From Patescibacteria group bacterium (GTDB taxonomy: Bacteria; Patescibacteriota; Minisyncoccia; UBA6257; JACRHW01): DNA of 44,063 bases. Shown piece after piece: positions 5,349 through 44,063 of this stretch. The stretch spans positions 1 to 44,063 of the forward strand of contig JAGWJP010000005.1 of NCBI GenBank assembly GCA_028865725.1. The letters are read 5' to 3'. The notes beneath the pieces are model-generated. The model had not been told where the DNA came from. It made no database searches and was given only the letters and a program-made list of their open reading frames with translations. How positions within the stretch are numbered: the stretch's first letter is position 1; the number at the start of each line of letters is the position of its first letter. The position numbers and the translations under genes were made by a program.

Positions 5349-5400
5349 AGCTTGAAGATACACGGATCGGGAATATTTGTCAAGTCTGGATGGAGTAAGT

Positions 5401-5833: not shown

Positions 5834-5834
5834 G

Positions 5835-5996: not shown

Positions 5997-6020
5997 ATTC
6001 GTCCGCAGCGAAGCATTCAG

Positions 6021-6093: not shown

Positions 6094-6141
6094 AAGGAAT
6101 ACGTGGTCAAGGATGGGGATGTGGTGGAGTCTAAAATATAG
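6094..6141 (+). repeat. Displaced duplicate of the ychF 3' end (att scar)
   Basis: caaggaatacgtggtcaaggatggggatgtggtggagtctaaaatatag ([15 protein letters not shown]) versus 4836-4884 ([15 protein letters not shown]). Confidence 0.9.
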
Positions 6142-6649: not shown

Positions 6650-6657
6650 CAAATAAT

Positions 6658-6707
6658 CATTGTCCCGAAAGGGATCGGTCCATGTACAGGACCAGATGCT
6701 AGCAATG
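6658..6707 (+). ncRNA. Three-way-junction RNA motif, copy 1 (sequesters the next ATG)
   Basis: cattg-tccc GAAA ggga-tc-ggtcc atgtaca ggacc-a-gatgctag-caatg; same frame at 41716-41763. Confidence 0.65.
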
Positions 6708-7001
6708 AAAACAAAAACCAAAAACACCCGCGCCATAACCTACCGGAGATACGGCATACCAGCCTTGATTCTCGAAGGTAAATGGCTCACAGAAAAATAT
6801 CACCTCTCCATCGGAGACGTGGTCGACATCGATTATCAGCCTAAAGAGATCCGCTTCAAAAAGAATAACCTTCTTAGTCAGGAAAGACAGCAAAAGCTCA
6901 AGGAGAAGAAGGAAATGAAGCGACAACGAATATATGGACACACCGAAGCAAGCTCGAATGAGAACACTGGCGAGAGAAGCCAAGAAATTGGTGGAGAGTA
7001 A
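6705..7001 (+). CDS. SymE/AbrB-fold protein with basic C-terminal tail
   Basis: IPALILEGKWL...LSIGDVVDI resembles the SymE-family core; ATG 6705 is preferred over the track start at 6660, which lies in the RNA motif. Confidence 0.65.
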   Translation: MKTKTKNTRAITYRRYGIPALILEGKWLTEKYHLSIGDVVDIDYQPKEIRFKKNNLLSQERQQKLKEKKEMKRQRIYGHTEASSNENTGERSQEIGGE

Positions 7002-7421: not shown

Positions 7422-7946
7422 ATGGAACAAGAAAAAACACCGCTCATACCAAACAGTACCCAGCTTCCCAATATCATCCTCGACTTTGTGGTCCCCCTCA
7501 TTCCTGAGGCCGAGGCTCGCTGCCTTATTTACATCTGCCGCCGAACCTTCGGCTTCCACAAGAGCTCGGACAGGATCAGCTTCTCCCAATTTATGAAAGG
7601 CATCAAAGACCGCAGGGGCAATATCCTAGATTACGGTACCGGACTATCCCGGCAGGCCGTCTCGATCGCCCTCAAACATCTTGTGAGCGCTGAGGCCGTA
7701 CGAGTCGCCAAAAGCCGGAAGGGAAATCACTACCAGATCAACCTGCATATGGATGTGGATAAGGTAGTCAACCTAGTAGACCAGTCTAGGAAGTTGACCA
7801 GAAATAGTCTACGAAATAGACCAAAACCGGTCTACCAGGTAGACACACAAAATCTAGGAAACAAAGAGAAATCTAGTATTAGGGATCCTGTGGAAAACTT
7901 ATCCCCAATGATTCAGGAACTCAGTCGAAAAATGACCATCAATTAA
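7422..7946 (+). CDS. Phage replication initiator (lambda O-like winged helix)
   Basis: PNSTQLPN.ILD, RCLIYICRRTFGFHK..DRISFSQF, TGLSRQAV; internal iterons. Confidence 0.8.
   Translation: MEQEKTPLIPNSTQLPNIILDFVVPLIPEAEARCLIYICRRTFGFHKSSDRISFSQFMKGIKDRRGNILDYGTGLSRQAVSIALKHLVSAEAVRVAKSRKGNHYQINLHMDVDKVVNLVDQSRKLTRNSLRNRPKPVYQVDTQNLGNKEKSSIRDPVENLSPMIQELSRKMTIN
7754..7907 (+). other. Putative phage origin of replication (iterons plus DnaA boxes)
   Basis: Four GTCWA-N5-TWGAC units at 7767, 7784, 7807 and 7830; TGTGGATAA at 7754; one-mismatch DnaA boxes at 7889 and 7899. Confidence 0.65.
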
Positions 7947-21440: not shown

Positions 21441-23519
21441 ATGATCAATTTACAAGTAGACAGGAGAGCGGACAAATCAACACTGGTCAAAAGCCAGCAG
21501 ATATCGCCGTTGCCGAAATTCGTAGAGTGGAACCGCCCGGGCATGGTGCAATGGCCTGCAGTTAAAGCGCAGGGCAAGCTCACCCTTACGAATCAGCCTG
21601 CAGCAGGACAAGTGATAACACTTGGATCAAAAACATATTCCTTCGTGGCAAGCCTCACGACCAATACTGACGGACAAATCGTAATCGGCGGAACTGTTGC
21701 GGCAACCAGAGCGAATATCGTGGCAGCCGTGAATCTCTCCGGACTTCCAGGTAGTCAGTATGCCTCCGCGACTTCCTTAAACGGAGATGTCGAGGCTGCG
21801 ATCGTAGGAAACGACATCATATTCACGGCAAAGACCGGTGGCGTAGCAGGCAACTCCATTGTCAGCACTTCGACGTTGGTACCTCCGAATACTTTTGATG
21901 CAGCCACACTCGGTACATACCGCGCAGGAGCCGCAATCAGTGATGCGGAATCCATGATCATCCCCGGATACAGAGGATGTTTCAACAACTACATTAACAA
22001 CATGTGGAATAACCGCGAGATGTACTACATCGGCCGGTCCTCATGGGACGGAGATACGGATAGAGCTTTCGGTATCCAGGAAGAATTGTTCAGGGAATTT
22101 CCTGACAACGAATATTTGATCAATGCGGGAGCAACAAGAAAAATGTATGCGCTTAATTTCCTCGAGCGCAAGGTTAAAAGCGTGAGAACCCTCACGATGT
22201 ATACCAAACTCCGCGATATTGAAGTTCAGACACTCTCGTCTCCCTTTGCAAAAAGCACAAGCAATCTTGTCTTCAAGACGATTGAGCTCGATGCTACAAG
22301 GTTCATTGTCTTTTATCGTCAACAGGCTGGTACAACTGGAATCTATGCTGTCGTAGGGAACACAAACACAAACGGAACTGTTACGTGGGGTGCACCGCTG
22401 CTTATGTACACCGTTGACTGGTACAACGAAAACTTTGATGCGGTACTCATAAATACAGACAAAGTCCTTATCGCTCTGCCTGTCGGTGCCTCAAACTATA
22501 TAAACACGGCAGTAGTTACAATTTCGGGAACCGGCATCGCACTAAATACTCCCGTCCAGGTGATCAACGTCGCGCCGAGCTACAAGCAGCTCGTCAAAGT
22601 GGGAACAGATAAAGCGATTCTTGCGTTTGAGAACGGATCAAACATAAACCTCTACTGCGTCTCGGTATCGGGAACGGTGCCTTCATACGGATCGCTGGCG
22701 ACAATTGCATCAGCATCCAAACCGATGTTTGCTCCGAACAGCACTGACAAATGCCAGATTGCATACATTGGCTCCGGCGGATGGTATTCAGCCGTCGTAA
22801 CTACTTCCGGCAGCACTATAACTGTCCAGGCCGGTGTGCAGATCAACTACGATACGAACTACTCATACCGATACATCATGATGTTCCAGATAACTACTGA
22901 CACCTTCATGTTCTGGAGTCACTGGGGCACGGTGCAATATCAGTCGCGTAACCGCTATCGCGCCGGCCTGATTACTGTTTCAGGAACCAATACAACCCTA
23001 GCAAGCAGTAACTATCTGCCGTCCGGCTGGTGGGGAGACAGCTTGATGTACACAAAGCCGATTGATGCTACGAGTTTCTACTTTTATAGATATGAAGCAC
23101 AGCGTGTCACTGGCGCAAAAGTAATGCTCTCCGGTACGACGCTTACATTCCCGAACATGCCGTACAAGAGTTTCGGTTGGAATGAAAACCAGGGCGATCA
23201 GCAGATATACAAATATCAGCAGTACAACAACATAACCCAGATCGCTGACCCGGTCATCTGCAACGGTATCTTGTTTATCGTGACGACCGACAACAATGCA
23301 AGCGGACAAATTGTAATTATGAGCGACAAGCCGTTCTCATTTGATTTATACAACGGCGACGATTTCTTCGGTACGTTTACAAAATCCGATCTTGGCATTC
23401 AGCAAAAGATTCAGGTTGATATTCCGATTGGTAAGGAAGAATTCGGTTTGAAGATGAAAAGCAATGACAGCGTCGTCCGCACAGCGCAAATAGATCACAT
23501 GTATCTTGCAATCGATTAA
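21441..23519 (+). CDS. Putative receptor-binding/tail spike protein with beta-propeller-like repeats
   Basis: Repeated V.T.SGT..(T/S) blades; N-terminal domain shared with the capsid insertion. Confidence 0.6.
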   Translation: MINLQVDRRADKSTLVKSQQISPLPKFVEWNRPGMVQWPAVKAQGKLTLTNQPAAGQVITLGSKTYSFVASLTTNTDGQIVIGGTVAATRANIVAAVNLSGLPGSQYASATSLNGDVEAAIVGNDIIFTAKTGGVAGNSIVSTSTLVPPNTFDAATLGTYRAGAAISDAESMIIPGYRGCFNNYINNMWNNREMYYIGRSSWDGDTDRAFGIQEELFREFPDNEYLINAGATRKMYALNFLERKVKSVRTLTMYTKLRDIEVQTLSSPFAKSTSNLVFKTIELDATRFIVFYRQQAGTTGIYAVVGNTNTNGTVTWGAPLLMYTVDWYNENFDAVLINTDKVLIALPVGASNYINTAVVTISGTGIALNTPVQVINVAPSYKQLVKVGTDKAILAFENGSNINLYCVSVSGTVPSYGSLATIASASKPMFAPNSTDKCQIAYIGSGGWYSAVVTTSGSTITVQAGVQINYDTNYSYRYIMMFQITTDTFMFWSHWGTVQYQSRNRYRAGLITVSGTNTTLASSNYLPSGWWGDSLMYTKPIDATSFYFYRYEAQRVTGAKVMLSGTTLTFPNMPYKSFGWNENQGDQQIYKYQQYNNITQIADPVICNGILFIVTTDNNASGQIVIMSDKPFSFDLYNGDDFFGTFTKSDLGIQQKIQVDIPIGKEEFGLKMKSNDSVVRTAQIDHMYLAID

Positions 23520-27752: not shown

Positions 27753-28355
27753 ATGAACTTACCATTCCAACAGACTCCAAACTATACTCCCGGGCCGACA
27801 AAAAAGACTGCTGTTGTCCTTCATTTCACGTTGGGATCGTACCGGGGAGCGGTTGAATGGCTCTGTAATGCCAACAGGCCAAACAGGTCCTCGTCGCATT
27901 TTATTATCGGACGCAATCCCGGAGAAATAGTTCAGCTGGTGAAGCTTGTAGACGTGGCCTGGCACGCAGGTAACATCAGCAATCCAAATGATCGAGCAAA
28001 GCGAATCATGCTCAAGAATCTTGACGGGTCCTGGGTAAACCCAAATCAATACACTGTCGGCATTGAGCTAGCCGCTGGCTACGACGTGGATCAGGACGGA
28101 ACGGTCGAACCAAATGAAAATGACATCACTGATTGGCAATACGAACAGCTTGTCGAACTAGTGAAGTCATTCATTGGAAACTCGGACGTAGCATTTGTAC
28201 TCGATGAAAAGAACATAATCATTCATGGCGACATTTGCGACTACAAGGAAAAGCCTGAAATTGTCCGTACCGAACTCTTGAAGCGAATGTTTGCCAAGAA
28301 CGGTGACAGGGAAGCCATCAAGGCTCAAATTATTAATTTAGTAAACCAGCTTTAA
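27753..28355 (+). CDS. N-acetylmuramoyl-L-alanine amidase (Amidase_2) endolysin
   Basis: VVLHFT, SSHFII, AWHAG, N..TVGIE, IIIHGD. Confidence 0.92.
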   Translation: MNLPFQQTPNYTPGPTKKTAVVLHFTLGSYRGAVEWLCNANRPNRSSSHFIIGRNPGEIVQLVKLVDVAWHAGNISNPNDRAKRIMLKNLDGSWVNPNQYTVGIELAAGYDVDQDGTVEPNENDITDWQYEQLVELVKSFIGNSDVAFVLDEKNIIIHGDICDYKEKPEIVRTELLKRMFAKNGDREAIKAQIINLVNQL

Positions 28356-28659: not shown

Positions 28660-29760
28660 ATGGCTAAAAACCCACACATTCCAGAGAAATTACCTGTTAA
28701 GGTCGATTATCAAGACCTTTTGACCCAGATAACCAAGGCTCATGGGTCTTTGGCGCGTCTGGATGCCATGATCGGTCAGTTACCGAATCCGAGCCTTCTA
28801 GAGCGTACATTCCTCACCAAGGAAGCTGTATTGAGCTCGCAGATCGAGGGTACACAGGCGACCATCAAAGAAGTTTTTGAATATGAAGCTGAAGGACAGA
28901 AAAAAGACGATTCCAACAAAGGACGCGACATCCAAGAAATCACCAACTATCGTATGGCAATGCGTAAAGGTGTAGAGATGCTCAAGGAACGACCGCTTTC
29001 AGAAAATCTGATCAAAGAATTGCACAAAATTCTCTTGCAGTCGGTCAGAGGTTACAACAAAGCTCCTGGCGAATTCAGAAAGCAACAAGTCTATATCGGC
29101 AAGCCCGGCGTTGGCATCGATGAAGCGTCATATGTTCCACCACCTCCAACAGCAATCTCGGAGCTCTTCAGTAATTTCGAACAATACTTAAATTCAAAAG
29201 ACGAACAGGACGTTTTGGTCCAGATTGCTATCGCGCACTTCCAGTTTGAAGCGATTCACCCGTTCCTGGATGGTAACGGAAGAATTGGACGTCTCCTCAT
29301 CCCGCTATTTCTCTATGATAGGAAGATTTTGTCATACCCGCTTTTGTATCTTTCCCAATATTTCGAGGAAAATCGTCCAGACTACTATCAGTTGCTCAAC
29401 AATATCACCGCAAAGGGCGAGTGGCTGCCTTGGATCAAGTTTTTCCTGCACGCACTAGAGGAGCAGTCAACGAAAGCACAGGAGACATCAAAAAATGTCC
29501 TTAGCCTGTACAAATCATACAAGGAAAAAATCGTCAGCATCAATTCCAAATATGCCCTCAGTCTGCTTGATGCAATTTTTGCGCATCCAGTTTTCTCATA
29601 CAAGAGCATCAAGGATCAGGTTGCGATTAAGAATCCGCAGACTCTCATCACTCTCATTAAAAAATTCGTCGAAGCCGGTATAGTGCAGGAGTCGGAACCA
29701 GAGAGGAAGCGTAATAAGCTGTATGCTTTTGGTGAATTAATGAAGTTGCTTAATCAATAA
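28660..29760 (+). CDS. Fic family protein with C-terminal HTH
   Basis: HPFLDGNGRIGR Fic motif; SSQIEGT inhibitory motif. Confidence 0.95.
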   Translation: MAKNPHIPEKLPVKVDYQDLLTQITKAHGSLARLDAMIGQLPNPSLLERTFLTKEAVLSSQIEGTQATIKEVFEYEAEGQKKDDSNKGRDIQEITNYRMAMRKGVEMLKERPLSENLIKELHKILLQSVRGYNKAPGEFRKQQVYIGKPGVGIDEASYVPPPPTAISELFSNFEQYLNSKDEQDVLVQIAIAHFQFEAIHPFLDGNGRIGRLLIPLFLYDRKILSYPLLYLSQYFEENRPDYYQLLNNITAKGEWLPWIKFFLHALEEQSTKAQETSKNVLSLYKSYKEKIVSINSKYALSLLDAIFAHPVFSYKSIKDQVAIKNPQTLITLIKKFVEAGIVQESEPERKRNKLYAFGELMKLLNQ

Positions 29761-32639: not shown

Positions 32640-35600
32640 CTAAGCCCGATGTTCCATGCACCATTGTCTGGCGTTCTGAAACATTCGGAGCCATGGGGAA
32701 ACCTCGAGGCTTTTCCATGAGCTTGGCTTCCAAGGCCACTGCCACAAACGGAAACAACGCTCGGGGTGAGGCATCATCGCAAGATGACGTCCGTCCGGAG
32801 AGCACAGAGCCGTGATACCGAGCGGCGAACCGTTCGGATTGTACGGATATGCTTCCGTTCGATTGCCGTGCGGATCAAGGTATGCGAGAGGCGAGAGCTT
32901 GCGCTCCAAAACCTGCTGCGCGATCGACTGATCTGGGTAGACCAGCCGACCTTCACCATGAGCGACCCACACGCCGATCCTCGATCCTTCCATGCCGGCA
33001 AGAAGCACTGACGGGCTAGGCAGAATTTCCACCTGCACCCATCGAGACTCAAACCGGCCCGAAGTGTTGTGAACGAATCTCGGCTGCTTTTTACCATCGA
33101 TCCCTTTCCACGGAACCCATCCAAGCAGCGCCATCAGCTGACAGCCGTTACATACGCCGAGCGAGAATGTATCCTCGCGGGCGTAGAAGCGATTGAACAT
33201 CTCCCTCAACTTCTCGTTGAAAAGAATTGTCCCTGCCCAGCCTTTTGCGCTGTCGAACACGTCCATGTAGGAGAATCCGCCGGCAAAGATGATGCCCTGG
33301 AACTGATCCAGATCGATCCTGCCTTCAAGGAGATCACTCATCGTGACTTCCCATGGAGCAAAACCGGCAGCTGCGCATGCAGCAAGCATTTCTCTGTCGC
33401 CGTTTGTGCCTTCCTCGCGCAATACTGCCACGCGAGGTTTATCTGACGCTTCCAAAACTTCCGGAAGCGTTGCCTCTGGAGTGAATGAGAGCTGATACGA
33501 CGGAGCCGTACCGATGCCGGGAAGCTGGTCCTCGTGACCAGAATATTCTTCTTCGGCACATGCAGAGTTCATCTGCAGCTCTTCGATCTTGGTGCTTGTC
33601 GCTTCCCACCAGGACCGGAGTTCCATGGTCGTACTTCTGAACAGTTCTCCGGTATCCTTCGCATCGACGTTGCACGCTGTGCTGTCGAGGGTGATTCCGA
33701 TCGTTGAGATCGACACTTCGAACGATTCGCAGATTTCAAAAACCCGCTTCTCGTTTTCGGTCCCGAGTTCAATGACGAACCCGAGCTCCTCGCCAAACAG
33801 ACTTGCCAAGGCTTCAGCAGCATGAGGGATACTCACACTGAATCCGCACCGGCTCGCCATGCACATCTCGACAACTGCGGTTATGAGGCCGCCGTCACTT
33901 CGATCATGCAGAGACAGAATCAACCCTTCGTCGATCATCTGTTGCACCGCAAGAAACGCGTTCTTGAGGAGCTTGGGATTTTCAACGTCAGGCGACTCAT
34001 CGCCGAGCTGGTCGAACGCTTGAGCCAGAGCTGAACCGCCGAGGCGATTTTTACCCTGTCCAAGATCGATGAGTGCCAAAGCACTCTCGCCAGGTTTCTT
34101 GATGTCCGGCGTGACCTTTTTGGTGATGTCGGGCACGGGTGCGTATCCGAGAATCACCAAACTTCCAGGAGCCTTTACGAGCTCTCCTGAAATCGTTGCT
34201 GCCATTGAAAGGCTGTCCTTTCCGCCATCAACTGCGATGCCGAGCCCGACCATCAAGTCAGACATAGCAACCGCAGCGTCATAGAGTAAGGCTCCTTCGT
34301 GAGGCAGTTTCGCAGGCCACATCCAGTTTGCACGGCACCGGATTTCTCCGATGTCGCTGATCCGCGCCGAGGCCATGTTGGTGAACATTTCTGCCACCGC
34401 CATTCGGGCTCCGGCTTTAGGATCAATCAGCATCTTCACCGGCTGTTCGCCGACTGCAGAGGCGCTTCCGCTCAGACCGAAATGGCTCTGGGCATTCACG
34501 CTTACGTTGGCGATCGGAATCTGGGCGATCCCACAGCATTGCTGCTGCGCGATGAGCCCAGTGACGCTTCGGTCCACCTTGTGAACCAGGAACCCTTTCG
34601 AGCCGACACTGGGAAGCCTGAACACTTTTTCAAGCGCTTCGGCGACCGTGGTATCCGGCAAATCCAGAGGCTTGAGGCCTTCGGTCCGCCGCTTTGACTC
34701 GAACGTCTTCTGAGGCATATTCGTGAGAATCTGCTCTAGGTTGAGACTGACGGGCGTTGTTTGGTTCTCGGCATCCTCGACGATCACGTTTCCGCTGCCA
34801 TCGATTTCTCCAAGAACTTCGCAGTTGACACGCTCGCGTTTGCAGATCGATTTGAAAAGCTCGATCTGTTCCGGCCTGATCAGGAAACCGTATCCCTCTT
34901 GGAATTCGGCGCTCCAGATTTTGAGGACGGACATCGTCTTGTCACCAAGTACGATACCGCGAATGCTGATCTTGCCACCAAGCGGTTCAAGCAATTCCGT
35001 GAGGACGTTGCTCGGACCACCGGCACCTTGATCGTGAATGCTCGAAATGGGATTGCTGTCTCCCATCTCAACACAGGCCCGAATGACACGATTCGCACGA
35101 TTCTCCATCTCCGCGTTGCCACGTTGAACAGAGTTAAAATCGAGCGACTCAGTATTCTGACCTTGCATCATGCTTGAGGCTGAGCCTCCGCCGACCCCAA
35201 TAGGATAGGCAGGACCGCCGATGCGCACGATGAGCATGCCAACCTCAGATGTCTCCTTAGCTGTATGGCCATCGAACAGATGTCCGACACCACCGCTGTA
35301 GAGAATCGGTTTGCGAGGCTCGCGCCATTCGCTTCCGACTGCCTGACCAAATGTTCGGGTGAAGCCGACTGTGAGAGGTTCGCCGAACTGATTGCCGTAG
35401 CTCGACACGCCGTTGCTGCCCTCAATAAGAATCGAAAGCGGCGAAGCGTACTTCGACGGCTTATCCTTGCCGACAACCTCTCCCGGAATTGTGTAACCGG
35501 GAATAAAAAGGTTTCCGACAAAGTAACCGGCGACACCGATGCCGACGATACCACCACGTCCGACTGCTGAGTTGTCGCGTATCCGACCGCCGGCTCCTGT

Positions 35601-36461
35601 CTGAGCTCCGGGGAAGGGCGCGACGAATGTAGGATGGTTGTGCGTTTCTGCGGTACAGGTGATGTGAACCACCTTCTCCATGAGACGCATTTCCGAAGGT
35701 CTGCCCGGCGTGACGGGGAGGATCAGGCGTGTACCGAATCCCTTGATCACACCAGCGTTGTCCCTGAAGGCAACGAGGCTGCAGTTTCCGCTGCCGAGAT
35801 TTTTCAGCGGTCGCTGAACGATCTCAAACAGAGTCTCCTGCATCGGGGTTCCGTCGATGACGATCCTGCCTTTGAAGTACCAGTGCCGGCTGTGCTCGCT
35901 ATTGGCGTTGCCCAGCTGGAATAGTTCAACATCGGTCGGATTCCTTTTCAGGACTTCCGCAAAGAGGTGCTGATAGTACTCGAGGTCCCTGGCATCCATG
36001 CCAAGGCCAAGCGCACTATTCATCTCCTCGAGGGCCACCTTTCCGCGGCCCATGAGATCAATCACTCGGACATTCTCCGGCATGACGCCGGTGTCAAAGG
36101 TTTCGATCCCGCCGGGGTAGTGCTGTTCGGTCATCCGATCAAGACGAGTCTTGAGGATGTCGGCCGAGCTGCCGTTGCCGGCATAGCGGTGAGTGCGCTC
36201 GATGCGCGTGATTCTGCTGAGCCCCATGGCCTGGCAGATTGATACTGCATTCGACGAGAACGGAGTCTCGATCGAGAGCCTGGGTCCAATCTCGACAGCT
36301 TCTGTGAGGCTGGGTTCGAGTCCGGTTTTGGCCGGCTCGAACGTTTCTGCGATGAGCCATTGGAGCTTCCTGAGCTCCTGCTCGGACAGCTGGCCTGTGG
36401 TTTCAGCATAAAAACCAAGTTCCAGTCCTCTGTCCATCTGTCGGTACATGCGATAGATCAT
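32640..36461 (-). CDS. purL: Phosphoribosylformylglycinamidine synthase, large fused type
   Basis: NSEHSRH, ETHNHPT, IHDQGAGG, GGKDSLS, HDRSDGG, glutaminase GVCNGCQ and MMPHPER. Confidence 0.97.
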   Translation of the reverse strand: MIYRMYRQMDRGLELGFYAETTGQLSEQELRKLQWLIAETFEPAKTGLEPSLTEAVEIGPRLSIETPFSSNAVSICQAMGLSRITRIERTHRYAGNGSSADILKTRLDRMTEQHYPGGIETFDTGVMPENVRVIDLMGRGKVALEEMNSALGLGMDARDLEYYQHLFAEVLKRNPTDVELFQLGNANSEHSRHWYFKGRIVIDGTPMQETLFEIVQRPLKNLGSGNCSLVAFRDNAGVIKGFGTRLILPVTPGRPSEMRLMEKVVHITCTAETHNHPTFVAPFPGAQTGAGGRIRDNSAVGRGGIVGIGVAGYFVGNLFIPGYTIPGEVVGKDKPSKYASPLSILIEGSNGVSSYGNQFGEPLTVGFTRTFGQAVGSEWREPRKPILYSGGVGHLFDGHTAKETSEVGMLIVRIGGPAYPIGVGGGSASSMMQGQNTESLDFNSVQRGNAEMENRANRVIRACVEMGDSNPISSIHDQGAGGPSNVLTELLEPLGGKISIRGIVLGDKTMSVLKIWSAEFQEGYGFLIRPEQIELFKSICKRERVNCEVLGEIDGSGNVIVEDAENQTTPVSLNLEQILTNMPQKTFESKRRTEGLKPLDLPDTTVAEALEKVFRLPSVGSKGFLVHKVDRSVTGLIAQQQCCGIAQIPIANVSVNAQSHFGLSGSASAVGEQPVKMLIDPKAGARMAVAEMFTNMASARISDIGEIRCRANWMWPAKLPHEGALLYDAAVAMSDLMVGLGIAVDGGKDSLSMAATISGELVKAPGSLVILGYAPVPDITKKVTPDIKKPGESALALIDLGQGKNRLGGSALAQAFDQLGDESPDVENPKLLKNAFLAVQQMIDEGLILSLHDRSDGGLITAVVEMCMASRCGFSVSIPHAAEALASLFGEELGFVIELGTENEKRVFEICESFEVSISTIGITLDSTACNVDAKDTGELFRSTTMELRSWWEATSTKIEELQMNSACAEEEYSGHEDQLPGIGTAPSYQLSFTPEATLPEVLEASDKPRVAVLREEGTNGDREMLAACAAAGFAPWEVTMSDLLEGRIDLDQFQGIIFAGGFSYMDVFDSAKGWAGTILFNEKLREMFNRFYAREDTFSLGVCNGCQLMALLGWVPWKGIDGKKQPRFVHNTSGRFESRWVQVEILPSPSVLLAGMEGSRIGVWVAHGEGRLVYPDQSIAQQVLERKLSPLAYLDPHGNRTEAYPYNPNGSPLGITALCSPDGRHLAMMPHPERCFRLWQWPWKPSSWKSLEVSPWLRMFQNARQWCMEHRA

Positions 36462-36537
36462 TGGCTTCTCCTTTTCTGTGTTTGTTTACGTTTGTGATGA
36501 CAAATAACTATGCACCTACACAGGTGCTCTGACGCCT

Positions 36538-36565
36538 ATACTACTCAAAATTGGACTTAAAGCAA
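36538..36565 (-). promoter_or_regulatory. purL promoter, homologous to the purD/purM promoters
   Basis: TTGCTTtaagtccaattttgagTAGTAT versus TTGCTTtttgtcaaattttgagTAGTAT. Confidence 0.65.
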
Positions 36566-36645
36566 GAAAAATTGCTAAATATTTTTATAAAAAAATGAGC
36601 GGTCCTTTTTCAGAACCGCCCATGGGTAAGCGTGCTGTCTGTGCT

Positions 36646-37317
36646 TCACGCAAAACATTCGATTGAGTATCCAGCAGGAACTTCGAGCGAGCCGGGATTT
36701 ATACCGTCCCACTTGATCAGACCGTTGACAACCATGCTGGTAATCCTAGGCTGGTGGATGTGCTCCTGCTGATTGACCCGAGTTCCGATCGTATCTGCCG
36801 TATCATCGTCATTGATTTTGACCATGCACCGGAAGAAAACCGGTCCGCGGTCGTATTCACCGGTGACGAAGTGCATGGAAACGGCTGAATGCTCGATCTC
36901 GCGCCTGCCGAATGCAGCGATGACAGCTTCGTGGACGTGATGTCCGTAGAGTCCCGGTCCTCCGAACTCCGGAAGCGGTCCCGGATGGATGTTGAAGACT
37001 GTTCGTGAGTTGAAGCGTGTTGTCGGATCGAGTCCGGTTACAAGCTTCAGCCATCCGGAGAGGGCGAAGAAGTCTGCTCCCGAATCGGTAGCAAACTTTT
37101 GATATGCCTCGCCGATCCATGGCTTCGGAAAATGCAGGAAGGGAACTCCGATCTTGCCAGCCCTTGCGCGCACACCGCCGTTTGCATGATTTGAAACAAC
37201 TGCGACGATGTCCGCATCAAGCGCTCCGCCTCTGGAAGCAAGAACGAGCTTTTCGAAGCCCGATCCGCCGCCTTCGGCCGATCCTGATGCAAAGACGAGA
37301 ACTTTTGATCTGCTCAT
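36646..37317 (-). CDS. purN: Phosphoribosylglycinamide formyltransferase
   Basis: VFASG...GSG, LSGW, NIHPG.LP.FGG.G.YG, MHFV...YDRGP. Confidence 0.92.
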   Translation of the reverse strand: MSRSKVLVFASGSAEGGGSGFEKLVLASRGGALDADIVAVVSNHANGGVRARAGKIGVPFLHFPKPWIGEAYQKFATDSGADFFALSGWLKLVTGLDPTTRFNSRTVFNIHPGPLPEFGGPGLYGHHVHEAVIAAFGRREIEHSAVSMHFVTGEYDRGPVFFRCMVKINDDDTADTIGTRVNQQEHIHQPRITSMVVNGLIKWDGINPGSLEVPAGYSIECFA

Positions 37318-37408
37318 TTTCTTGTCTCCTTTGATTGGTGGTTTAAAATATCGGTTCTGAAAACAAGTATTGACTAAAATATATTATTTTGCAACTTTCC
37401 AAGCCTTG

Positions 37409-37472
37409 TTGCTTTTTGTCAAATTTTGAGTAGTATCATCTTCAGAACTGAACCTTTAACAAAGAAAAGGAG
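37409..37472 (+). repeat. 64-bp promoter/RBS block, copy 1 (purD)
   Basis: Exact copy at 38833-38896; contains TTGCTT-16-TAGTAT and AAGGAG. Confidence 0.9.
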
Positions 37473-37481
37473 AACCAAGTC

Positions 37482-38771
37482 ATGGACCAAATGAAAGTAC
37501 TGCTCGTTGGAGGCGGCGGACGCGAACATGCAATTGCGTGGAAGCTTCGTCAGTCGCCGCGTCTCGGAAAACTCTACGTCGCGCCAGGTAATGCTGGAAC
37601 GGCGCAGATCGCGGAAAACGTCCCGGTGAAAGCTACGGACGTTGAAGGTCTCTTGGCCTTCGCACTCAAGGAAGGGATCGAATTCACCATTGTTGGTCAA
37701 GACGATCCGCTTGCACTCGGCATCGTCGATGCCTTTCAGGCGAAAGGACTAAAGATCTTCGGCCCGACGCAAGCAGCTGCACAGATCGAAGCATCGAAGG
37801 TGTTCTCAAAACGCCTGATGAAGGAATCGGGCGTGCCGACTACACTGTTTAATGTTTACACCGACCATGCCAGTGCGCTCGAGGAAGTGCGGAGACATTT
37901 CGCAGCTTACTCGGGACTGCCGACTGTCATCAAGGCGTCGGGACTCGCTCTCGGAAAAGGAGCATACGTCTGCCACACTCTTGCTGAAGCCGAACAGGCT
38001 CTCGACGAGATCATGGTGAAGAAGCTCCATGGCGGTGCTGGTGATCAGGTTGTCATCGAGGAATACGCGGGCGGACAGGAAGTGTCCATCCATGCGTTCT
38101 GCGACGGCAAGTCGTTCGAATTGTTTCCGTCAGCGCAGGATCACAAACCTGCGCTTGATGGCGACAAGGGTCCGAATACCGGCGGAATGGGAACTATCGC
38201 CCCGGTGCCCTGGTTCAATGCCAGCGACGCGGTAAGCGAGCAGATCGTGGGTCCGATTCTAGCAGGACTCCAGGAGAAAGGTTCGCCGTTTATCGGCCTG
38301 CTCTATCCTGGACTCAAGATGCCGGAAACGGGACCGATGGTCCTCGAGTTCAACGCTCGGTTCGGGGATCCGGAGACTCAGGTTTATATGCGCCTTCTGA
38401 AAACCGATTTGCTCGACATCTTCGAGGCATGCGTCGAAGGACGACTCCACGAGATCAACGTCGAGTGGAATCCTGGCTTCGCTGCCTGCATTGTGATGGC
38501 TTCAGGCGGATATCCGTCACCCGACTACAAGAAGGGCTTTCCGATCACCGGCATCGATAACGCCGAAATCCTTCCTGGAATCATCGTGTTCCATGCAGGG
38601 ACCAAGCAAGCTGATGGCAAGCTGGTTACATCCGGCGGCCGTGTTCTCGGCGTCACTGGTGTCGGTGCAACCCTTCAGGAAGCCCTTGATCATGCCTACC
38701 ACGGCGTCGAGTGCATCCGCTTCGAAGGGATGCAGTATCGCAAAGATATCGGTGCGAAGTCCCTGGTTTGA
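37482..38771 (+). CDS. purD: Phosphoribosylamine-glycine ligase
   Basis: GGGGREHA, APGNAG, QDHK...GPNTGGMG, EFNARFGDPE, SGGRVL. Confidence 0.98.
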   Translation: MDQMKVLLVGGGGREHAIAWKLRQSPRLGKLYVAPGNAGTAQIAENVPVKATDVEGLLAFALKEGIEFTIVGQDDPLALGIVDAFQAKGLKIFGPTQAAAQIEASKVFSKRLMKESGVPTTLFNVYTDHASALEEVRRHFAAYSGLPTVIKASGLALGKGAYVCHTLAEAEQALDEIMVKKLHGGAGDQVVIEEYAGGQEVSIHAFCDGKSFELFPSAQDHKPALDGDKGPNTGGMGTIAPVPWFNASDAVSEQIVGPILAGLQEKGSPFIGLLYPGLKMPETGPMVLEFNARFGDPETQVYMRLLKTDLLDIFEACVEGRLHEINVEWNPGFAACIVMASGGYPSPDYKKGFPITGIDNAEILPGIIVFHAGTKQADGKLVTSGGRVLGVTGVGATLQEALDHAYHGVECIRFEGMQYRKDIGAKSLV

Positions 38772-38796
38772 TTCATGGTGTTCGTTCGTAAAACAA

Positions 38797-38834
38797 AGGC
38801 CTGTGATCTAAAAAATCGCAGGCCTATTTTATTT
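38797..38834 (+). terminator. purD terminator
   Basis: aggcctgtgat...atcgcaggcct-attttattt. Confidence 0.7.
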
Positions 38835-38896
38835 GCTTTTTGTCAAATTTTGAGTAGTATCATCTTCAGAACTGAACCTTTAACAAAGAAAAGGAG
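38833..38896 (+). repeat. 64-bp promoter/RBS block, copy 2 (purM)
   Basis: Exact copy of 37409-37472. Confidence 0.9.
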
Positions 38897-38902
38897 CAAA
38901 GA

Positions 38903-40006
38903 ATGAGCATGACCTATGCGGGTACCGGCGTCAATTACAATGCTATGGACCCATTCAAACGGATGGCGCAGCTTGCTGCACGGGAAACAGCCGGCAACAT
39001 CGCTCGTCTCAACGGCGGCGAGTTCCGGGAGTTTGAACCCTCACGAGGCGAAAGCGCCTACCTCATCGAAGCGGCCAAAAGCTACTTCGCTCATGTCGAG
39101 GAAGGTCTCGGCACCAAGAACCTGGTCGCGGATGCGATGTATGCCCTCACCGGCAAGTCGTACTACGATCACATCGCTCAATGCACTGTCGCCATGATCG
39201 TGAATGATCTGGTGACTCTCGGCGCATTACCGATGTCAGTTGCCATGCATCTTGCAGTCGGTGTCTCAGACTGGTTCAACGACGATAACCGCACGCGCGA
39301 CCTGGTCAACGGCTGGAAGAAAGCCTGCGACTTGGCCCGCTGCACCTGGGGCGGAGGCGAAACGCCAACTCTCAAGGGTGTCGTGGTTCCTGAAGCCATC
39401 GTGCTCTCCGGTTCCGCTATCGGAATCGTGAAGCCGAAAGAGCGTCTCATCATCGGTAAGATTCAAGCCGGCGATGTGATCGTGATCATCGAGAGCTCCG
39501 GCATTCATGCCAACGGACTCACTCTGGCGCGGAAGATTGCTGACAAGCTGCCGGAAGGGTATCTCACGAAACTCTCCGACGGCCGAAGCTACGGCGAAAC
39601 GCTTCTCGATCCGACTCACATCTACGTCGGCCTCGTCGAGGACTGCCTCAACGCTGGTGTTGACATTCACTACGCGGTGAACGTTACCGGCCACGGCTGG
39701 CGCAAGCTGATGCGGTCAACGCAGGCATGGAGCTACATCATCGAGACGCTTCCAAAGCAACTTCCGATCTTCGACTTCCTGCAGGAGCAGGGACCGGTCG
39801 ATGACACCGAAGCCTACGGCAACCTCAACATGGGAGCGGGTTTTGCTCTCTATGTTTCGGAAGCCGATGTGGCGAAAGTTCTCGATGTCGCTCACAGCCT
39901 CGGTCTCGGCGCTCTGGCTGCCGGCCACATCGAAGCCGGCGACAAGAAAGTCGTGATCAAGCCCAAGAGTCTCGAGTATGCCGGTGAGACGCTGGCGGTC
40001 CGATGA
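38903..40006 (+). CDS. purM: AIR synthase (phosphoribosylformylglycinamidine cyclo-ligase), divergent subtype
   Basis: TYAGTGV, EGLGTK, VAMIVNDL, GGET, SSGIHANG, NVTGHG, NMGAG. Confidence 0.9.
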   Translation: MSMTYAGTGVNYNAMDPFKRMAQLAARETAGNIARLNGGEFREFEPSRGESAYLIEAAKSYFAHVEEGLGTKNLVADAMYALTGKSYYDHIAQCTVAMIVNDLVTLGALPMSVAMHLAVGVSDWFNDDNRTRDLVNGWKKACDLARCTWGGGETPTLKGVVVPEAIVLSGSAIGIVKPKERLIIGKIQAGDVIVIIESSGIHANGLTLARKIADKLPEGYLTKLSDGRSYGETLLDPTHIYVGLVEDCLNAGVDIHYAVNVTGHGWRKLMRSTQAWSYIIETLPKQLPIFDFLQEQGPVDDTEAYGNLNMGAGFALYVSEADVAKVLDVAHSLGLGALAAGHIEAGDKKVVIKPKSLEYAGETLAVR

Positions 40007-40031
40007 CTTCAAAGTTCCTCGTTTCAATCAT

Positions 40032-40068
40032 TACTCCGGGAGGGTCAAACCTTCCGGAGTATTTTTTT
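40032..40068 (+). terminator. purM terminator
   Basis: tactccgggagg...ccttccggagta-ttttttt. Confidence 0.75.
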
Positions 40069-40100
40069 ACTACACAAACATAAAATGGTATACTTTGCTT

Positions 40101-40424
40101 ATGGCAATACCAGATGATGAAAAAAATGCTATCTGGAAGGAGATTGAACAAAAGTCTCCTGATCTGATTGAAGCTTTTCTTTCGATAAAAAATGAGGACG
40201 AACTCAAAGCTTTTTTCCGTGATCTCATGAGCGAGCGGGATTTACGTGAGTTCGCGATGCGCTGGGAAGTTGCCAAGAAGCTCGACGCCGGAGTTCCGTT
40301 CTCCCAGATCCAGGAAGAATCCGGCGAGTCCCCCGTGACTATCACAAAAATAAATCGCTGGCTTAAAGAAGGGTGCGGCGGATATAAGATGATGATCGAC
40401 CGGCTCAGGGGCGAGGAAAAATAA
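40101..40424 (+). CDS. YerC/YecD TrpR-related protein (leaderless start)
   Basis: LIEAFLSIKNEDELKAFFRDLMSEREL-type core (SERDL here), RWEVAKKL, TITKINRWL..G.GGY; TGG-TATACT-N6-ATG at 40101. Confidence 0.88.
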   Translation: MAIPDDEKNAIWKEIEQKSPDLIEAFLSIKNEDELKAFFRDLMSERDLREFAMRWEVAKKLDAGVPFSQIQEESGESPVTITKINRWLKEGCGGYKMMIDRLRGEEK

Positions 40425-40518
40425 GCTAGTAAGCTCAGCAATAACAATATAGAATGAACTCGGACAGAGTTCATTTTACGTTAGAGAAAACATAAACCAC
40501 AAACAGAAGGAGGTTCCT

Positions 40519-41526
40519 ATGCAGTCAGCACATGCGCCGGCTCGTCAGGGAACCTGTGTGGTGAGCTTTGACGTAGCTGGCAGTCTTCAATCGTTCCGAT
40601 CAAAGGGGCTACAGGTTCCAGGACGAGATGATCTGATCTTTGTCAGACTACACCAAAGCCTTCTCGAAAGAGTGGTCAAGGCATTCCCGGGCATCACAGT
40701 CGTACCGATCGACAAGGATGAGCTCAGAGCAGAAATCTGGCATCAGGTGAACGACCGCATCGTACGCGACAGCAAACGTGCAGTCCTTGTAACTTGCTCC
40801 GAGATGGCAGCTCTGAACCATCAAGATGAGGGTCTAAACCTGAGCATCAACCGACTCTTCGACAGAGACGGAAAAATGCTCGGCTACGGTCCGCGTCCCG
40901 GGTTCGATTATCTGGACAAGCAGTTTGATGAGCTGCTCCGAAAGGTTGCCAGTCGTCACGTCATTCTGGCGAAAGAAGGGGCGTTCAGGGGAGATACCTG
41001 TCGCTTCATTCTGAGGGAGCTTGAAAAGCGTGGCGTATCGGTTGTCTCGACAATCATAGGGTTTGCCGATACCGGATCGAAGGCTTCCATTGAACAGGAG
41101 TTCAAGGGCGAGCTCGCCGTTATTCATTTATACGATCACCTCGTCGAATGGATAGCCGACCGAGATCTCATCCCATTCATGCCGGGCTGCGGACGTGTTG
41201 TCGGTGAACGCTCGACTCATAGCTTCATGCCGGTAAGAACGGCAGACGGCTTCAGCTGCGCCTATCCATATGTTGCACCGTTCGGTTTGACGGAAAAATG
41301 GATGAGCCTGTCTGAGTCAGGTGCTCGTGAGCTGTCGCGGTTCTTCCTCGACTTCAGCATCGAATTGTTCAGCAGAATCGGTCCTGAAACCACAGCAGGG
41401 GAGCTTCTGGGCGACAATCCCAGGGTTTCAATGCCTGTAATCGTGACCAATCACAGCCAAATTCCGGCTAAAGAGGCCAAAATCGTCGAATTCCTGCAGC
41501 AGGTGCGAAAAACACTCGCAGACTAG
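40519..41526 (+). CDS. Phosphoribosyltransferase-like protein with degenerate PRPP loop
   Basis: VILAKEGAFRGDT at the expected hhhhDDxxxTGxT position; SD GAAGGAGG upstream. Confidence 0.5.
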   Translation: MQSAHAPARQGTCVVSFDVAGSLQSFRSKGLQVPGRDDLIFVRLHQSLLERVVKAFPGITVVPIDKDELRAEIWHQVNDRIVRDSKRAVLVTCSEMAALNHQDEGLNLSINRLFDRDGKMLGYGPRPGFDYLDKQFDELLRKVASRHVILAKEGAFRGDTCRFILRELEKRGVSVVSTIIGFADTGSKASIEQEFKGELAVIHLYDHLVEWIADRDLIPFMPGCGRVVGERSTHSFMPVRTADGFSCAYPYVAPFGLTEKWMSLSESGARELSRFFLDFSIELFSRIGPETTAGELLGDNPRVSMPVIVTNHSQIPAKEAKIVEFLQQVRKTLAD

Positions 41527-41546
41527 GCGTTATTTCGCTCAAAGCC

Positions 41547-41583
41547 GATCGCATCACTTTAAAAGGGTGGTGCGATCTTTTTG
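41547..41583 (+). terminator. Intrinsic terminator
   Basis: gatcgcatcactt...gggtggtgcgatc-ttttt. Confidence 0.7.
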
Positions 41584-41662
41584 TTATCGCCAAAATGTCA
41601 TTATTTTGCTTGACTTTTTGAAGATTTAATACCGTATATTACTATCCAATAGATTATCCTTC

Positions 41663-41698
41663 TTGACAATAGCTAATCACTACACTAGGATGTAGTGA
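41663..41698 (+). promoter_or_regulatory. Integrase-operon promoter with palindrome over the -10
   Basis: TTGACA-17-TAGGAT; tcactaca-ctagga-tgtagtga inverted repeat. Confidence 0.65.
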
Positions 41699-41715
41699 CA
41701 ACCGAATATCAAGAA

Positions 41716-41937
41716 CATTGTCCCGAAAGGGATCCTGCCGGCAACGGCTGGATGCTAGCAATGGACTTTCCCAAGCTTTATCTTGCTAATACGCACAGGG
41801 ATAGTAAGATAAAGGTGCATGCCCGAAAGGGTATGTATCCCAAGCTTGGGATCTGACATAAGCCGATTAATTATATTAAAAAGCTTAGGTCAACCAAAAG
41901 TCCACTTTGACTAGCATCGAGTGGGCTTTTTGGTTGG
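41716..41937 (+). ncRNA. Structured leader RNA of the integrase: three-way-junction motif copy 2, stacked hairpins, terminator-like hairpin
   Basis: cattg-tccc GAAA ggga-tcct-gccggcaacggc-tg-gatgctag-caatg; ctttatcttgcta/tagtaagataaag; tgcatgccc GAAA gggtatgta; caaccaaaagtccact...agtgggctttttggttg with CTAGCA in the loop. Confidence 0.7.
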
Positions 41938-41943
41938 AAACCT

Positions 41944-42861
41944 ATGCTTTTCAAAGACGTAATAGATGAATTCACGAACTGGCGACAGTTCAAAATAAAT
42001 AGAACCACTACATCAGGCAACGACAAAGACCTGCGGCTTTTCTGCTTGTTTTTAAGAAATCCACATATCGAGGAGATCACGCTAAACGACGTGATGCTTT
42101 ACCTGAACCTCATGAGAGAAATCGGCTGGGCGCACAACAGCTTTATATCAAAGTGTATGGCGCTCAAGAAATTCTTTGAATTCTGCAATCTCAGAGGCTA
42201 CCGGGTCCTGAACGAAAACCTCATTCCAATACCTCAGAAGCAGTACAAGATTCCTAGAGTTGCTACTCCGGAAGAATACAAGAAATTGCTGGCTGTCATC
42301 CCGAAGAATACCGATCCGCGAAATGTCCGCAATGAAGCTATCGTAAGATTGTTATGGGATACCGGAGCACGCAACGGCGAGATACTCGCGCTTGATATGG
42401 ACGACCTAGATCTGGTTAACAACAAAGCTCTGATCAAGACTGAGAAAGCTAAGACTCGCAGACCATTACGAGAGATTTTTTGGACCAAGGAAACGAGCGA
42501 AGCGATACAGAAATGGATCGAGAGAAGGGAACGGTTCAAGAGAGGAAACGCACTCCGCGATCCGAATGCTCTCTTTATCTCCATTCACAATTCAGGCTGC
42601 AATAAAACTAGAGGATACCGCTTCAAGCCGAGCGGAGTATGCGAAATGCTTAGAGGCTATTCAAACAAAGCTGGTCTTGAGCGCCCAATGAATGCGCACT
42701 CAATGAGGCACTACATGGGCCGAAGTATTATCGAAAAAGGCGGTTCCAACTCTGACGTGACAAATATCCTTGGTCACTCTTGCATTGAAAGCTCAATGGT
42801 CTACACCATGATGTACGGAAAGCAGGCTGAGCAAAGGTATCGCAAATTTAGAGGAAAATAA
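41944..42861 (+). CDS. Tyrosine recombinase/integrase (XerC/D-like size)
   Basis: N-terminal SAM-like domain; catalytic R (TGARNGE), K (KTEK), HSMRH, LGH, Y (SSMVY). Confidence 0.93.
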   Translation: MLFKDVIDEFTNWRQFKINRTTTSGNDKDLRLFCLFLRNPHIEEITLNDVMLYLNLMREIGWAHNSFISKCMALKKFFEFCNLRGYRVLNENLIPIPQKQYKIPRVATPEEYKKLLAVIPKNTDPRNVRNEAIVRLLWDTGARNGEILALDMDDLDLVNNKALIKTEKAKTRRPLREIFWTKETSEAIQKWIERRERFKRGNALRDPNALFISIHNSGCNKTRGYRFKPSGVCEMLRGYSNKAGLERPMNAHSMRHYMGRSIIEKGGSNSDVTNILGHSCIESSMVYTMMYGKQAEQRYRKFRGK

Positions 42862-43335: not shown

Positions 43336-43476
43336 GTGAAGAACAAAGCAGCCCAAGAGCTCGGAAAGAAAGGTGGCCAGAAGACCAAGAAGAAGTATGG
43401 TAAGAAATACTTCCAGGAAATTGGTCGAAAAGCCGCAAAAGTAAGGTGGGGAAAAAAGGACCCTGCCGTTGCTTGA
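43336..43476 (+). CDS. 46 aa KGG-motif basic protein (leaderless; not in the ORF track)
   Basis: MKNKAAQELGKKGGQKTKKKYGKKYFQEIGRKAAKVRWGKKDPAVA; TGC-TATAAT-N6-GTG. Confidence 0.75.
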   Translation: MKNKAAQELGKKGGQKTKKKYGKKYFQEIGRKAAKVRWGKKDPAVA

Positions 43477-43636: not shown

Positions 43637-43673
43637 TGAGAAGATGGAGGTCTCATAGAGTTTAAGGTTTAGG
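43637..43673 (+). repeat. Right att junction of the prophage
   Basis: 16-bp identity to the ychF end and 27/30 identity to 4997-5026. Confidence 0.8.
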
Positions 43674-43917: not shown

Positions 43918-44063
43918 TGAATTCTAGTTTGAAGTGCAACACCTTCCGAACACCTCGCACGGAGTGCGCCAGTTAAGGCATTTGCGCCTGGTATGGTTCA
44001 TGAGCCAGACCGTGTTTCGCACATCCTTGTCACTAATCATACTGAAATCGGAGCCTTTTGGAT
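43918..44063 (-). mobile_element. Right end of an IS30-family element with transposase C-terminus (stop at 43926-43924), running off the window
   Basis: PKGSDFSMISDKDVRNTVWLMNHTRRKCLNWRTPCEVF; end GGTGTTGCACTTCAAACTAGAATTCA. Confidence 0.88.

Follow-up and report, generated by a model that had tools for sequence, protein, structure and literature searches.

A covarying structured RNA upstream of a patescibacterial prophage integrase gene: a candidate attenuator with a possible link to early-gene control

What does the long folded leader in front of a patescibacterial prophage integrase gene do, and does it act on genes other than the one that it precedes? The question was raised by a stretch of 44,063 nucleotides (nt; contig JAGWJP010000005.1 of assembly GCA_028865725.1, Patescibacteria group bacterium), hereafter the window, in which a leader of ~235 nt (41698-41943) lies between a sigma-70-like promoter and a tyrosine integrase gene. 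The initial annotation of this DNA, made from its letters, had described a promoter, a three-way junction and a terminator-like hairpin and had proposed an RNA-based lysogeny switch; the three elements were all recovered where it had placed them (Table 1). Our comparison with homologous leaders indicated that the leader is a real, conserved and uncatalogued structured RNA with programmable internal pairing. It very likely serves as an attenuator of the integrase gene, and a trans link to the control of early genes is probable, at least in some lineages of these phages. It possibly determines immunity too, though less likely than not.

The junction comprises a closing stem (P1), a GNRA-capped stem (P2), a TC linker and a variable hairpin (P3), and it leaves one octamer, here called the address (GATGCTAG), unpaired between P3 and P1. 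The loop of the terminator-like hairpin, ~150 nt downstream in the window, contains an octamer (CTAGCATC) exactly complementary to it, as the initial annotation had pointed out. The decisive support for these predicted features was comparative and came from an alignment of 24 homologous leaders. Address and loop were complementary in all 24, and their helix covaried; its eight pairs were formed in 100% of the cells. One pair of columns, for example, read AU in 11 leaders, GC in nine, CG in three and GU in one. The proposal had been made to depend on covariation of the two 8-mers, and changes on both sides were found at five of the eight pairs. The covariation score of the whole structure was 0.267, compared with 0.122 in shuffles (0 of 500 reached 0.267) and 0.03-0.09 in slid controls. 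P1 covaried as well (one pair was AU in 20 leaders, GC in three and GU in one), and P3 differed in nearly every copy with the hairpin kept. The G.U pairs in P1, P3 and the address:loop helix fit the + strand only.

Eleven octamers were present among 26 non-identical leaders (GATGCTAG, GATGCTAA, GATGAGAG, GAGATGAG, GATGCAAA, GAAACGAC, GATGCAAC, GATGCGAA, GAGGCAAA, GATGGAAA and GATACGAC). The Watson-Crick complement of its own octamer was found in 24 of the 26 leaders, and the other two needed one G.U pair; cross-tests succeeded in 3 of 528 cases. In each of the 28 leaders with at least 200 nt of downstream sequence, a complement to the leader's own octamer followed at a distance of 49-154 nt, within the loop of the hairpin that precedes the integrase gene. 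An independent set of 32 viral loci was retrieved by the integrase protein alone. Among these leaders P2 varied (CCCGAAAGGG, ACCC-TTCG-GGGT and others), P3 could be missing (L319 and L329), and address/loop pairs were recognized by eye, including AGGATGCGAC/GTCGCATCCT, GACGCTAA/TTAGCGTC, GAGGCTAA/TTAGCCTC, ACGACCAAG/CTTGGTCGT, AGTGGTGC/GCACCACT and TTGCAAC/GTTGCAA. An automated pass over this set found a Watson-Crick complement of at least 7 nt in 17 of the 29 leaders with a called hairpin; in several leaders the automated picker took the wrong hairpin. These patterns of change argue that the address:loop pairing is a real RNA-RNA contact. The octamer GATGCTAG occurred four times in the window, where 1.23 were expected, and this count alone is weak evidence because 6 of 100 shuffles also reached four.

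The folding energies pointed to the same strand. A 257-nt stretch spanning the leader folded at -101.2 kcal/mol (z = -7.4), and none of 200 shuffles was as stable; the opposite strand was less stable (-80 kcal/mol, z = -4.85). The terminator-like hairpin had a folding energy of -23.1 kcal/mol (z = -4.64) and lay 10-25 nt upstream of the integrase ATG in 26 of 26 non-identical leaders. In every inspected leader that has one, the TTGACA-type element stood at a constant distance from the junction, and in the window a strong terminator (41547-41577) insulates the leader promoter from the upstream gene. The putative RNA 5' end, ACAACCGAA (41698-41706), can pair with TTTGGTTG (41929-41936, including the GGTTG that follows the T run), which would join the two ends of the RNA in a helix, P0. 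RNAalifold predicted six pairs of P0 in 14 leaders, three of them with some compensatory change. The middle domain differed in size and make-up among subfamilies, and its hairpins were preserved through compensatory changes; in 2 of the same 14 leaders an A-U pair of the palindromic stem had become U-A. A 31-codon upstream open reading frame (ORF), which the initial annotation had placed at 41761, does exist in the window but is not conserved: its length varied from 1 to 39 codons, its frame shifted and 3 of the 24 leaders had an ACG start, and it was rejected as a coding feature.

The address:loop pairing can be extended. After one bulged A it continues for 3 bp with CAA of the P1 3' strand and then as GGACTTT/AAAGTCC, the latter being part of the terminator 5' arm. 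The 3-bp extension was compensated in L083 (CGA/TCG) and L095 (CGG/CCG), as read by eye. The alternative pairing TGGACTTT/AAAGTCCA that had been claimed earlier was thus borne out. Two folds were then enforced in turn on each of the 24 leaders, one with P1 intact and the other with the address:loop pairing as a nested helix. The computed terminator stem was present with P1 intact and absent under the nested helix in 24 of 24 leaders, and the energy gap between the two folds was -6.5 to +9.1 kcal/mol. Because the extended address:loop helix excludes the terminator, the leader is best read as a putative two-state attenuator. A hairpin and T run directly upstream of the gene, together with a mutually exclusive alternative helix in the calculations, are what an attenuator with an intrinsic terminator would have. 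The strand after P1 also resembled a partner of the terminator 5' arm of its own leader: the mean longest complementary run was 6.08, compared with 4.64 for unrelated arms, and runs of at least 6 were found in 18 of 24 leaders vs 19% of cross pairs. This complementarity appears to be weaker evidence than the octamer pair. The leader thus seems to have the anatomy of a bistable attenuator, in which a static pseudoknot and a strand-displacement toehold would look alike in sequence.

Searches of Rfam with cmscan gave no match over the whole window at gathering thresholds and none for 41520-41960 at E values up to 10; for 6600-6760 the only result was a chance HOTAIR_3 row (E = 6.5). The C4 family, which the initial annotation had named for this check, was included, and because Rfam contained no match, the claim of novelty stands. 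In the main-text literature searched, passages of PMC5737381 among it, no description of the leader RNA was found, and the GenBank phage records contained nothing that blastn could match to the leader. Pattern scans placed the junction in 11 genome contigs (metagenome-assembled genomes labeled Saccharibacteria, Patescibacteria or 'Parcubacteria') and in viral and metagenome contigs. The metagenome scan with a 16-mer returned 120 rows, mostly chance matches. True cases were selected by a regular expression requiring P1, with 46 instances as the result. The covariance model R1 detected no carrier beyond the window genome among 150 phylum and 150 class genomes sampled, with 40 candidates scored per genome, a result that shows at most that the junction is rare. 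Homologous leaders preceded related tyrosine integrases in prophages of Saccharibacteria/Patescibacteria, and one octamer could precede two different integrase subfamilies. Two metatranscriptome runs contained only contigs of leader relatives at 85-95% identity, possibly by DNA carry-over. A metagenome contig matched by the 16-mer by chance, L034 (6700-7500, - strand), contained at least 10 copies of a ~37-nt unit with a ~77-nt period; the unit, TCCCGAAAGGGATC followed by ACTGCCGAAAGGCATTGGTGAC, resembles a CRISPR-type array with a repeat sharing the P2 hairpin.

The instances fell into two classes, both with P1, P2 and the TC linker conserved. Class 2 consisted of promoter, junction, variable middle domain, terminator-like hairpin and integrase gene. 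In class 1 the junction lay directly on the start of a conserved early gene encoding 98 amino acids (aa). The second junction copy of the window, which had been noted earlier at 6658, belongs to class 1; it carried the same octamer and no partner nearby. The ATG of the early gene (6705-6707) sits in the 3' strand of its P1. A further ATG at 6696, inside the address, is in frame with the early ORF (MLAM...), and the same was found in G310 (608) and G311 (622); because the address holds an in-frame ATG, the true start codon may fall within the pairing segment. The address occupied -10 to -3 relative to the conserved start codon in the window and at the other class-1 sites of the same phage group, so, with the in-frame ATG, loop pairing would cover the initiation region. 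By position, a complement in a 15-nt hairpin loop and an address overlapping the initiation region would suit an antisense blocker. The early protein had no match in Pfam, NCBIfam or PHROG. Its AlphaFold2 model (mean predicted local distance difference test score 75) showed a small beta domain and a long helix, and Foldseek against the PDB gave no match with E below 0.6. A SymE/AbrB-like identity, considered at first, was not supported by hidden Markov model or Foldseek matches.

The address complement was absent within 330 nt downstream in all 15 class-1 copies examined, and the only complement in the window was the loop of the integrase leader. As this loop is the sole complement of the early address in the window, the leader RNA probably also acts in trans, as an antisense RNA that would block initiation on the early mRNA. 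In the window and five other records the two classes lay on one strand at opposite prophage ends, 33-36 kb apart. Nine records held both sites, and the two addresses were identical in eight of them, with three address types: GATGCTAG in the window, G009, G007 and G008; GATGCTAA in G005 and L117; and GGATGCGAC in G310 and G311. In the ninth record, G006, the last base was G at the early site and A in the leader, and the early address still paired with the loop through G.U. In records G310 and G311 the 9-mer recurred once more in the sense direction, ~600 nt from the far end of the record and, respectively, 47.5 and 37 kb upstream of the leader. This second address came immediately behind a hairpin, in the spacer preceding an early ORF for a small membrane protein, and in G310 a homologue of the early protein of the window adjoined it. 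The G310/G311 case weighs most because the address differs and the surroundings have diverged.

A provirus of the same phage group, G305 (L174, L182 and L306-L308; complete, 40.6 kb), had no junction at either place. It had a hairpin, ATTGCTTTTCCGAGAGAGCAAC, 38 nt before the early ATG and a flipped hairpin with a complementary loop, GTTGCTCTCGGAAAGCAAT, ~65 nt before the integrase ATG, each followed by CACACG. The site before the integrase gene was the best sense-strand complement genome-wide, with a score of 29 vs maxima of 18-24 in 20 shuffles. This pair appears to be a different solution to the same wiring. No second address copy was present at the far ends of the viral records G001-G004, and RNAduplex on long stretches returned uninformative long duplexes.

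What the sequences show is a structure, its covariation and addresses that match between two loci; from these we inferred how termination, the direction and sign of regulation, and immunity might be connected. A transcript from the sigma-70-like promoter would first fold the three-way junction, displaying an 8-nt single-stranded address, and the terminator-like hairpin would end transcription before the integrase gene. Pairing of address and loop in cis, extended through P1 into the terminator 5' arm by strand displacement, would block termination and allow integrase to be made, for example on infection of a naive cell. Accumulated leader RNA would offer free loops. Acting in trans, these could bind the early mRNA at its address and block initiation; the free loops would also bind the address of nascent leaders, a competition that would favour termination. 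In a lysogen the early genes and the integrase gene would both be shut down. Integrase and early-gene expression would be coupled in a switch of the lysogeny or immunity type, with its specificity in the fast-evolving address. The sign and direction of the trans step are the least certain, and the reverse, in which early transcripts titrate the loops, is also possible. Taken as a whole, a two-state integrase attenuator whose loop also acts in trans on the early mRNA is the explanation that we favour with moderate confidence. Lysogeny without a protein repressor goes further: immunity would be conferred by the leader RNA, whose terminator loop would pair with the address at the start codon and so silence the early operon. 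The RNA would also shut off its own read-through into the integrase gene, and the 8-10-nt address/loop pairs would define immunity groups. We offer this only tentatively. The absence of a CI protein, stated in the initial annotation, held for the 30 window ORFs scanned against Pfam, among which no CI- or Cro-like protein was found and a TrpR-like protein of the cargo region was the sole DNA-binding family match; the scan was not exhaustive, and the claim does not extend to the whole window. A link between the integrase leader and the early genes, also proposed there, was backed by the eight matching records of nine and by the G305 hairpins. The likeness to P4 and P1 is one of analogy.

Several observations weigh against this explanation. 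The terminator-like hairpin was missed by a simple terminator scan, since its loop is 15 nt and the scan maximum was 8 nt. Because the patterns used to gather the initial sets demanded a fixed P2, its constancy in the resulting alignments is built in. The metatranscriptome contigs carry neither RNA ends nor strand, and one 3.2-kb contig spans the leader into the integrase gene. The matches of early-site and leader addresses across phages come from related records of small diversity. The trans pairing is only 8-11 bp, and in whole-genome scans a 9-mer match was no better than chance; the trans case is therefore carried by position and context. Three complete phage genomes with the leader (G312, G313 and G314) had no convincing second copy, and neither G001 nor G002 had one, their extra 8-mers lying in uninformative context, so the cis function may be general and the trans link lineage-specific. 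Finally, the early copies with GATGCTAC (L021, L045, L079, L150, L169 and L170) had no cognate leader among the retrieved sequences.

A search with the predicted loop 16-mer for the cognate leader of GATGCTAC gave 112 unrelated matches and no true one. One of these early-gene junctions, L150, lies at 21794-21843 (- strand) of G005, an IMG/VR provirus record, 2.4 kb downstream of the integrase leader of the prophage with GATGCTAA. Its P2 has a compensated change (TCCT-GAAA-AGGA), and it looks like part of a tandem second prophage with a different address.

The most serious rival is a purely cis-acting structured 5' untranslated region. The address:loop pairing would be an internal pseudoknot or attenuator, and its input would be a protein (integrase, excision factor or host factor) or transcription kinetics. 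The junction at the early gene would act separately, in cis; it would merely have its ancestry and a binding factor in common with the leader, and no RNA-RNA contact between the loci would occur. The cis pair is indeed universal, being present in all 24 aligned leaders and in many protein-retrieved ones, and second copies were found in some lineages only, with G312, G313 and G314 lacking one. P1, P2 and the TC linker are moreover conserved in both classes beyond the needs of a bare antisense target. However, this account leaves unexplained why the early-copy octamer exactly matches the leader of its own phage in three address types, why complementary hairpins occupy both places in a phage that has no junction, and why the address evolves fast with the match kept. 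We consider it unlikely as a full account.

A second rival is a stand-alone noncoding RNA that assists the integrase, whether as a cofactor for architecture or directionality or as a guide of the IS110 bridge RNA kind, with the address reading nucleic acid elsewhere, such as DNA. A large multidomain RNA with a pseudoknot, always directly upstream of a recombinase gene and with a short, freely varying specificity segment, would fit this idea. However, the recombinase is a tyrosine integrase (PF00589) and not of the IS110 type, and the variable segment covaries within the same RNA, with no visible covariation with att DNA. The att-like repeats lack the octamer except for one degenerate remnant at 5130, and leaders of one octamer precede two integrase subfamilies. 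On these grounds such an RNA is improbable.

More improbable still is that the three-way junction forms the basis of a riboswitch or of a new self-cleaving ribozyme. Ribozymes are common beside phage integrases, and a compact GNRA-capped junction followed by a terminator-type expression platform has a riboswitch-like architecture. However, the strand that would form the pocket or core is the most variable part of the leader (11 octamers in the 24 leaders and more in the protein-retrieved set), P3 can be absent, as in L319 and L329, and no Rfam family matched even at E up to 10. An invariant ligand-binding core of the riboswitch kind was not found, as the junction strand varies freely if the loop matches it, and the hammerhead core motifs were not seen by eye at the junction positions. 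Least probable of all are DNA-level signals (protein operators, recombination sites or single-stranded DNA hairpins): integron tyrosine recombinases do read folded single-stranded DNA, and the inverted repeats over the leader -35 and -10 covary between loci, but the G.U-type pairs fit the + strand only, the + strand folds better (z = -7.4 vs -4.85), and the element, which in every case points the same way as the gene, has a promoter at one end and a T run at the other.

The leader-integrase module is the last one in a prophage that lies downstream of ychF (3778-4884) in a genome of 1.36 Mb in 104 contigs. The att-like repeats are degenerate copies of the ychF 3' end; the copy at 43649-43673 closes the element bearing the integrase gene, and the att-type repeats at ychF look like leftovers of successive integrations there. 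The early and replication genes begin at ~6.3 kb (RepO-like and RusA-like). The lysis gene is followed by cargo (Fic, RibD_C, peptidase S51, a metallo-beta-lactamase-fold protein, purL, purN, purD, purM and a TrpR-like protein), and the module comes after this cargo. The purine-synthesis cluster, at 32640-41526 between the lysis gene and the integrase module, comprises purL (1273 aa, - strand), purN-like, purD and purM, and the same stretch holds the TrpR-like protein and a 335-aa ORF without a family. A purD homologue was absent from the related prophage records G005, G007, G008 and G009, and in G006 it was on a different contig. For a genome of 1.36 Mb, this cluster is either unusual cargo or captured host DNA. 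No tRNA or tmRNA genes were found in the window.

Some smaller features were recorded around the module. Inverted repeats cover the leader promoter at 41653-41670 and 41678-41697: ATTATC...GACAAT spans the -35 (ATTGTC in relatives), and CACTACAC-TAGGAT-GTAGTG flanks the -10. The inner pairs of the -10 repeat covary among loci (for example CACTCCAA/GGAGTG and CCACTATAA/TATAGTGG). These repeats may serve as operators, in which case a DNA-binding protein would act on the switch as an additional layer. Downstream of the integrase gene, a Lys/Gly-rich ORF of 46 aa (43336-43476) had a weak LEA_5 match and is directly preceded by a sequence that resembles a promoter (TTGTGA and TATAAT 16 nt apart, plus an upstream TG). 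Transposase-like ORF fragments at 5400-6000 and 43924-44061 (both - strand), each after att-like repeats, have a common 12-mer at 5410-5421 and 43932-43943, and the contig end falls inside the second fragment.

Table 1. Positions of the leader elements and of other features in the window (strand as reported)
Feature	Position	Strand	Details
att-like repeats	4835-4885 (4870-4885), 5003-5022, ~5130-5160, ~6094-6140, 43649-43673		degenerate copies of the ychF 3' end
Second junction copy (class 1)	6658..6707	+	P1, P2 and address as in leader (GATGCTAG 6695-6702), different P3; R1 66.6 bits
Early 98-aa protein, candidate target gene	6705..7001	+	conserved in 18 loci
RepO-like replication gene	7422-7946		after early gene
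Lysis amidase	27753-28355		
Fic/DOC-family protein	28660-29760		directly after lysis gene
Sigma-70-like promoter	41663..41691	+	TTGACA 41663-41668, 17-nt spacer, TAGGAT 41686-41691; 10/12 consensus positions
Putative RNA 5' end ACAACCGAA	41698..41706	+	start placed from the promoter
Three-way junction	41716..41763	+	P1, P2, TC linker, P3, then unpaired address; model R1 58.4 bits
P1 closing stem	41716-41720 / 41759-41763	+	CATTG / CAATG
P2	41721-41732	+	TCCC-GAAA-GGGA; TC follows
P3	41735-41750	+	variable hairpin
Address GATGCTAG	41751..41758	+	unpaired octamer, J3/1 between P3 and P1; complementary to 41911-41918
Putative antiterminator strand TGGACTTT	41762..41769	+	pairs with AAAGTCCA at 41897-41904
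Variable middle domain	41770..41893	+	2-3 hairpins; GNRA-capped hairpin 41816-41837; palindromic hairpin CCCAAGCTTGGG 41839-41850
Terminator-like hairpin	41894..41936	+	5' arm AAAGTCCAC 41897-41905; 15-nt loop TTTGACTAGCATCGA 41906-41920; 3' arm GTGGGCTTT 41921-41929; T run 41927-41931
Loop octamer CTAGCATC	41911..41918	+	exact complement of address
Tyrosine integrase, 305 aa	41944..42861	+	Pfam Phage_integrase (PF00589) 5.3e-26; PHROG integrase 7e-34

To our knowledge, only a handful of systems control lysogeny by RNA alone; they are essentially those of P4 and of the P1/P7 group and are all enterobacterial. The leader family is uncatalogued and structurally distinct, with unusually clear covariation and a long-range pseudoknot or antiterminator that is free to change its sequence. 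Its hosts are Saccharibacteria/Patescibacteria, whose gene regulation and phage biology are almost unknown. A model of swapped address/loop pairs bears on how integrase expression is set, how it may be tied to the early genes and how immunity specificity could evolve. Such a short programmable pairing module could also serve synthetic biology as a compact orthogonal attenuator. If the repressor-free reading were true, a programmable RNA 'address code' would be common to a whole clade of integrase modules in phages of ultra-small Patescibacteria.

The closest parallel in logic is the immunity of phage P4. As described in PMC4825925 (section 21), seqB of the P4 CI RNA pairs with seqA and seqC, and this pairing is coupled to transcription termination. 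Like P4, our system has an untranslated leader of a phage operon with short segments complementary to other segments of the phage transcripts. Termination-coupled RNA-RNA pairing with short-sequence specificity, which can stand in for a protein repressor, would be a further likeness to P4, predicted here from the DNA. However, there is no sequence or structure homology, Rfam having given no match, and the leader here belongs to an integrase gene and not to a replication operon. The effector segment occupies the terminator hairpin's own loop, a three-way junction presents the target, and one target, ~35 kb distant, sits at an early-gene start codon. The resemblance to P4 and P1 is, as far as the sequences tell, an analogy of logic and not homology.

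The c4 antisense RNA of P1/P7 (Rfam C4) is folded, and its loops bind targets both in the same region of the transcript and further downstream. In the C4 family, a stable small RNA that RNase P cuts out of the leader confers immunity. The c4 RNA blocks translation of an early antirepressor gene, and differences in its pairing segments define heteroimmune phages. The present leader shares the logic, with unpaired segments complementary to transcripts of the same phage (24 of 24 leaders, and a second site in eight of nine records). Unlike c4, it is not a member of Rfam C4, for which cmscan found nothing at E up to 10; it has one address of 8-10 nt instead of two segments, is linked to an integrase gene and occurs in Patescibacteria hosts.

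In countertranscript attenuation of plasmids (pT181, pIP501 and pAMbeta1) and in Anti-Q of pCF10, the nascent leader folds either a terminator or an antiterminator. Loop-initiated pairing of a small RNA picks the fold, and the pairing sequences diverge fast and define specificity groups. The plasmid countertranscripts come from the opposite strand, whereas here the complementary segments are both sense, in one transcript and at a distant locus. Riboswitch-type leaders likewise have a 5' folded domain followed by exclusive antiterminator and terminator helices, which in our calculations were of near-equal energy. In contrast to theirs, the sensing strand here is not conserved in sequence and covaries with the loop; because of this covariation, it is read as a pairing partner and not as a ligand pocket. 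The IS110 bridge RNA and the IS1111 seekRNA are also structured RNAs directly upstream of a recombinase gene with short programmable segments. Unlike the IS110 bridge RNA, the leader precedes a tyrosine integrase gene and no match to att DNA was found, and its programmable segment pairs with RNA of the same element.

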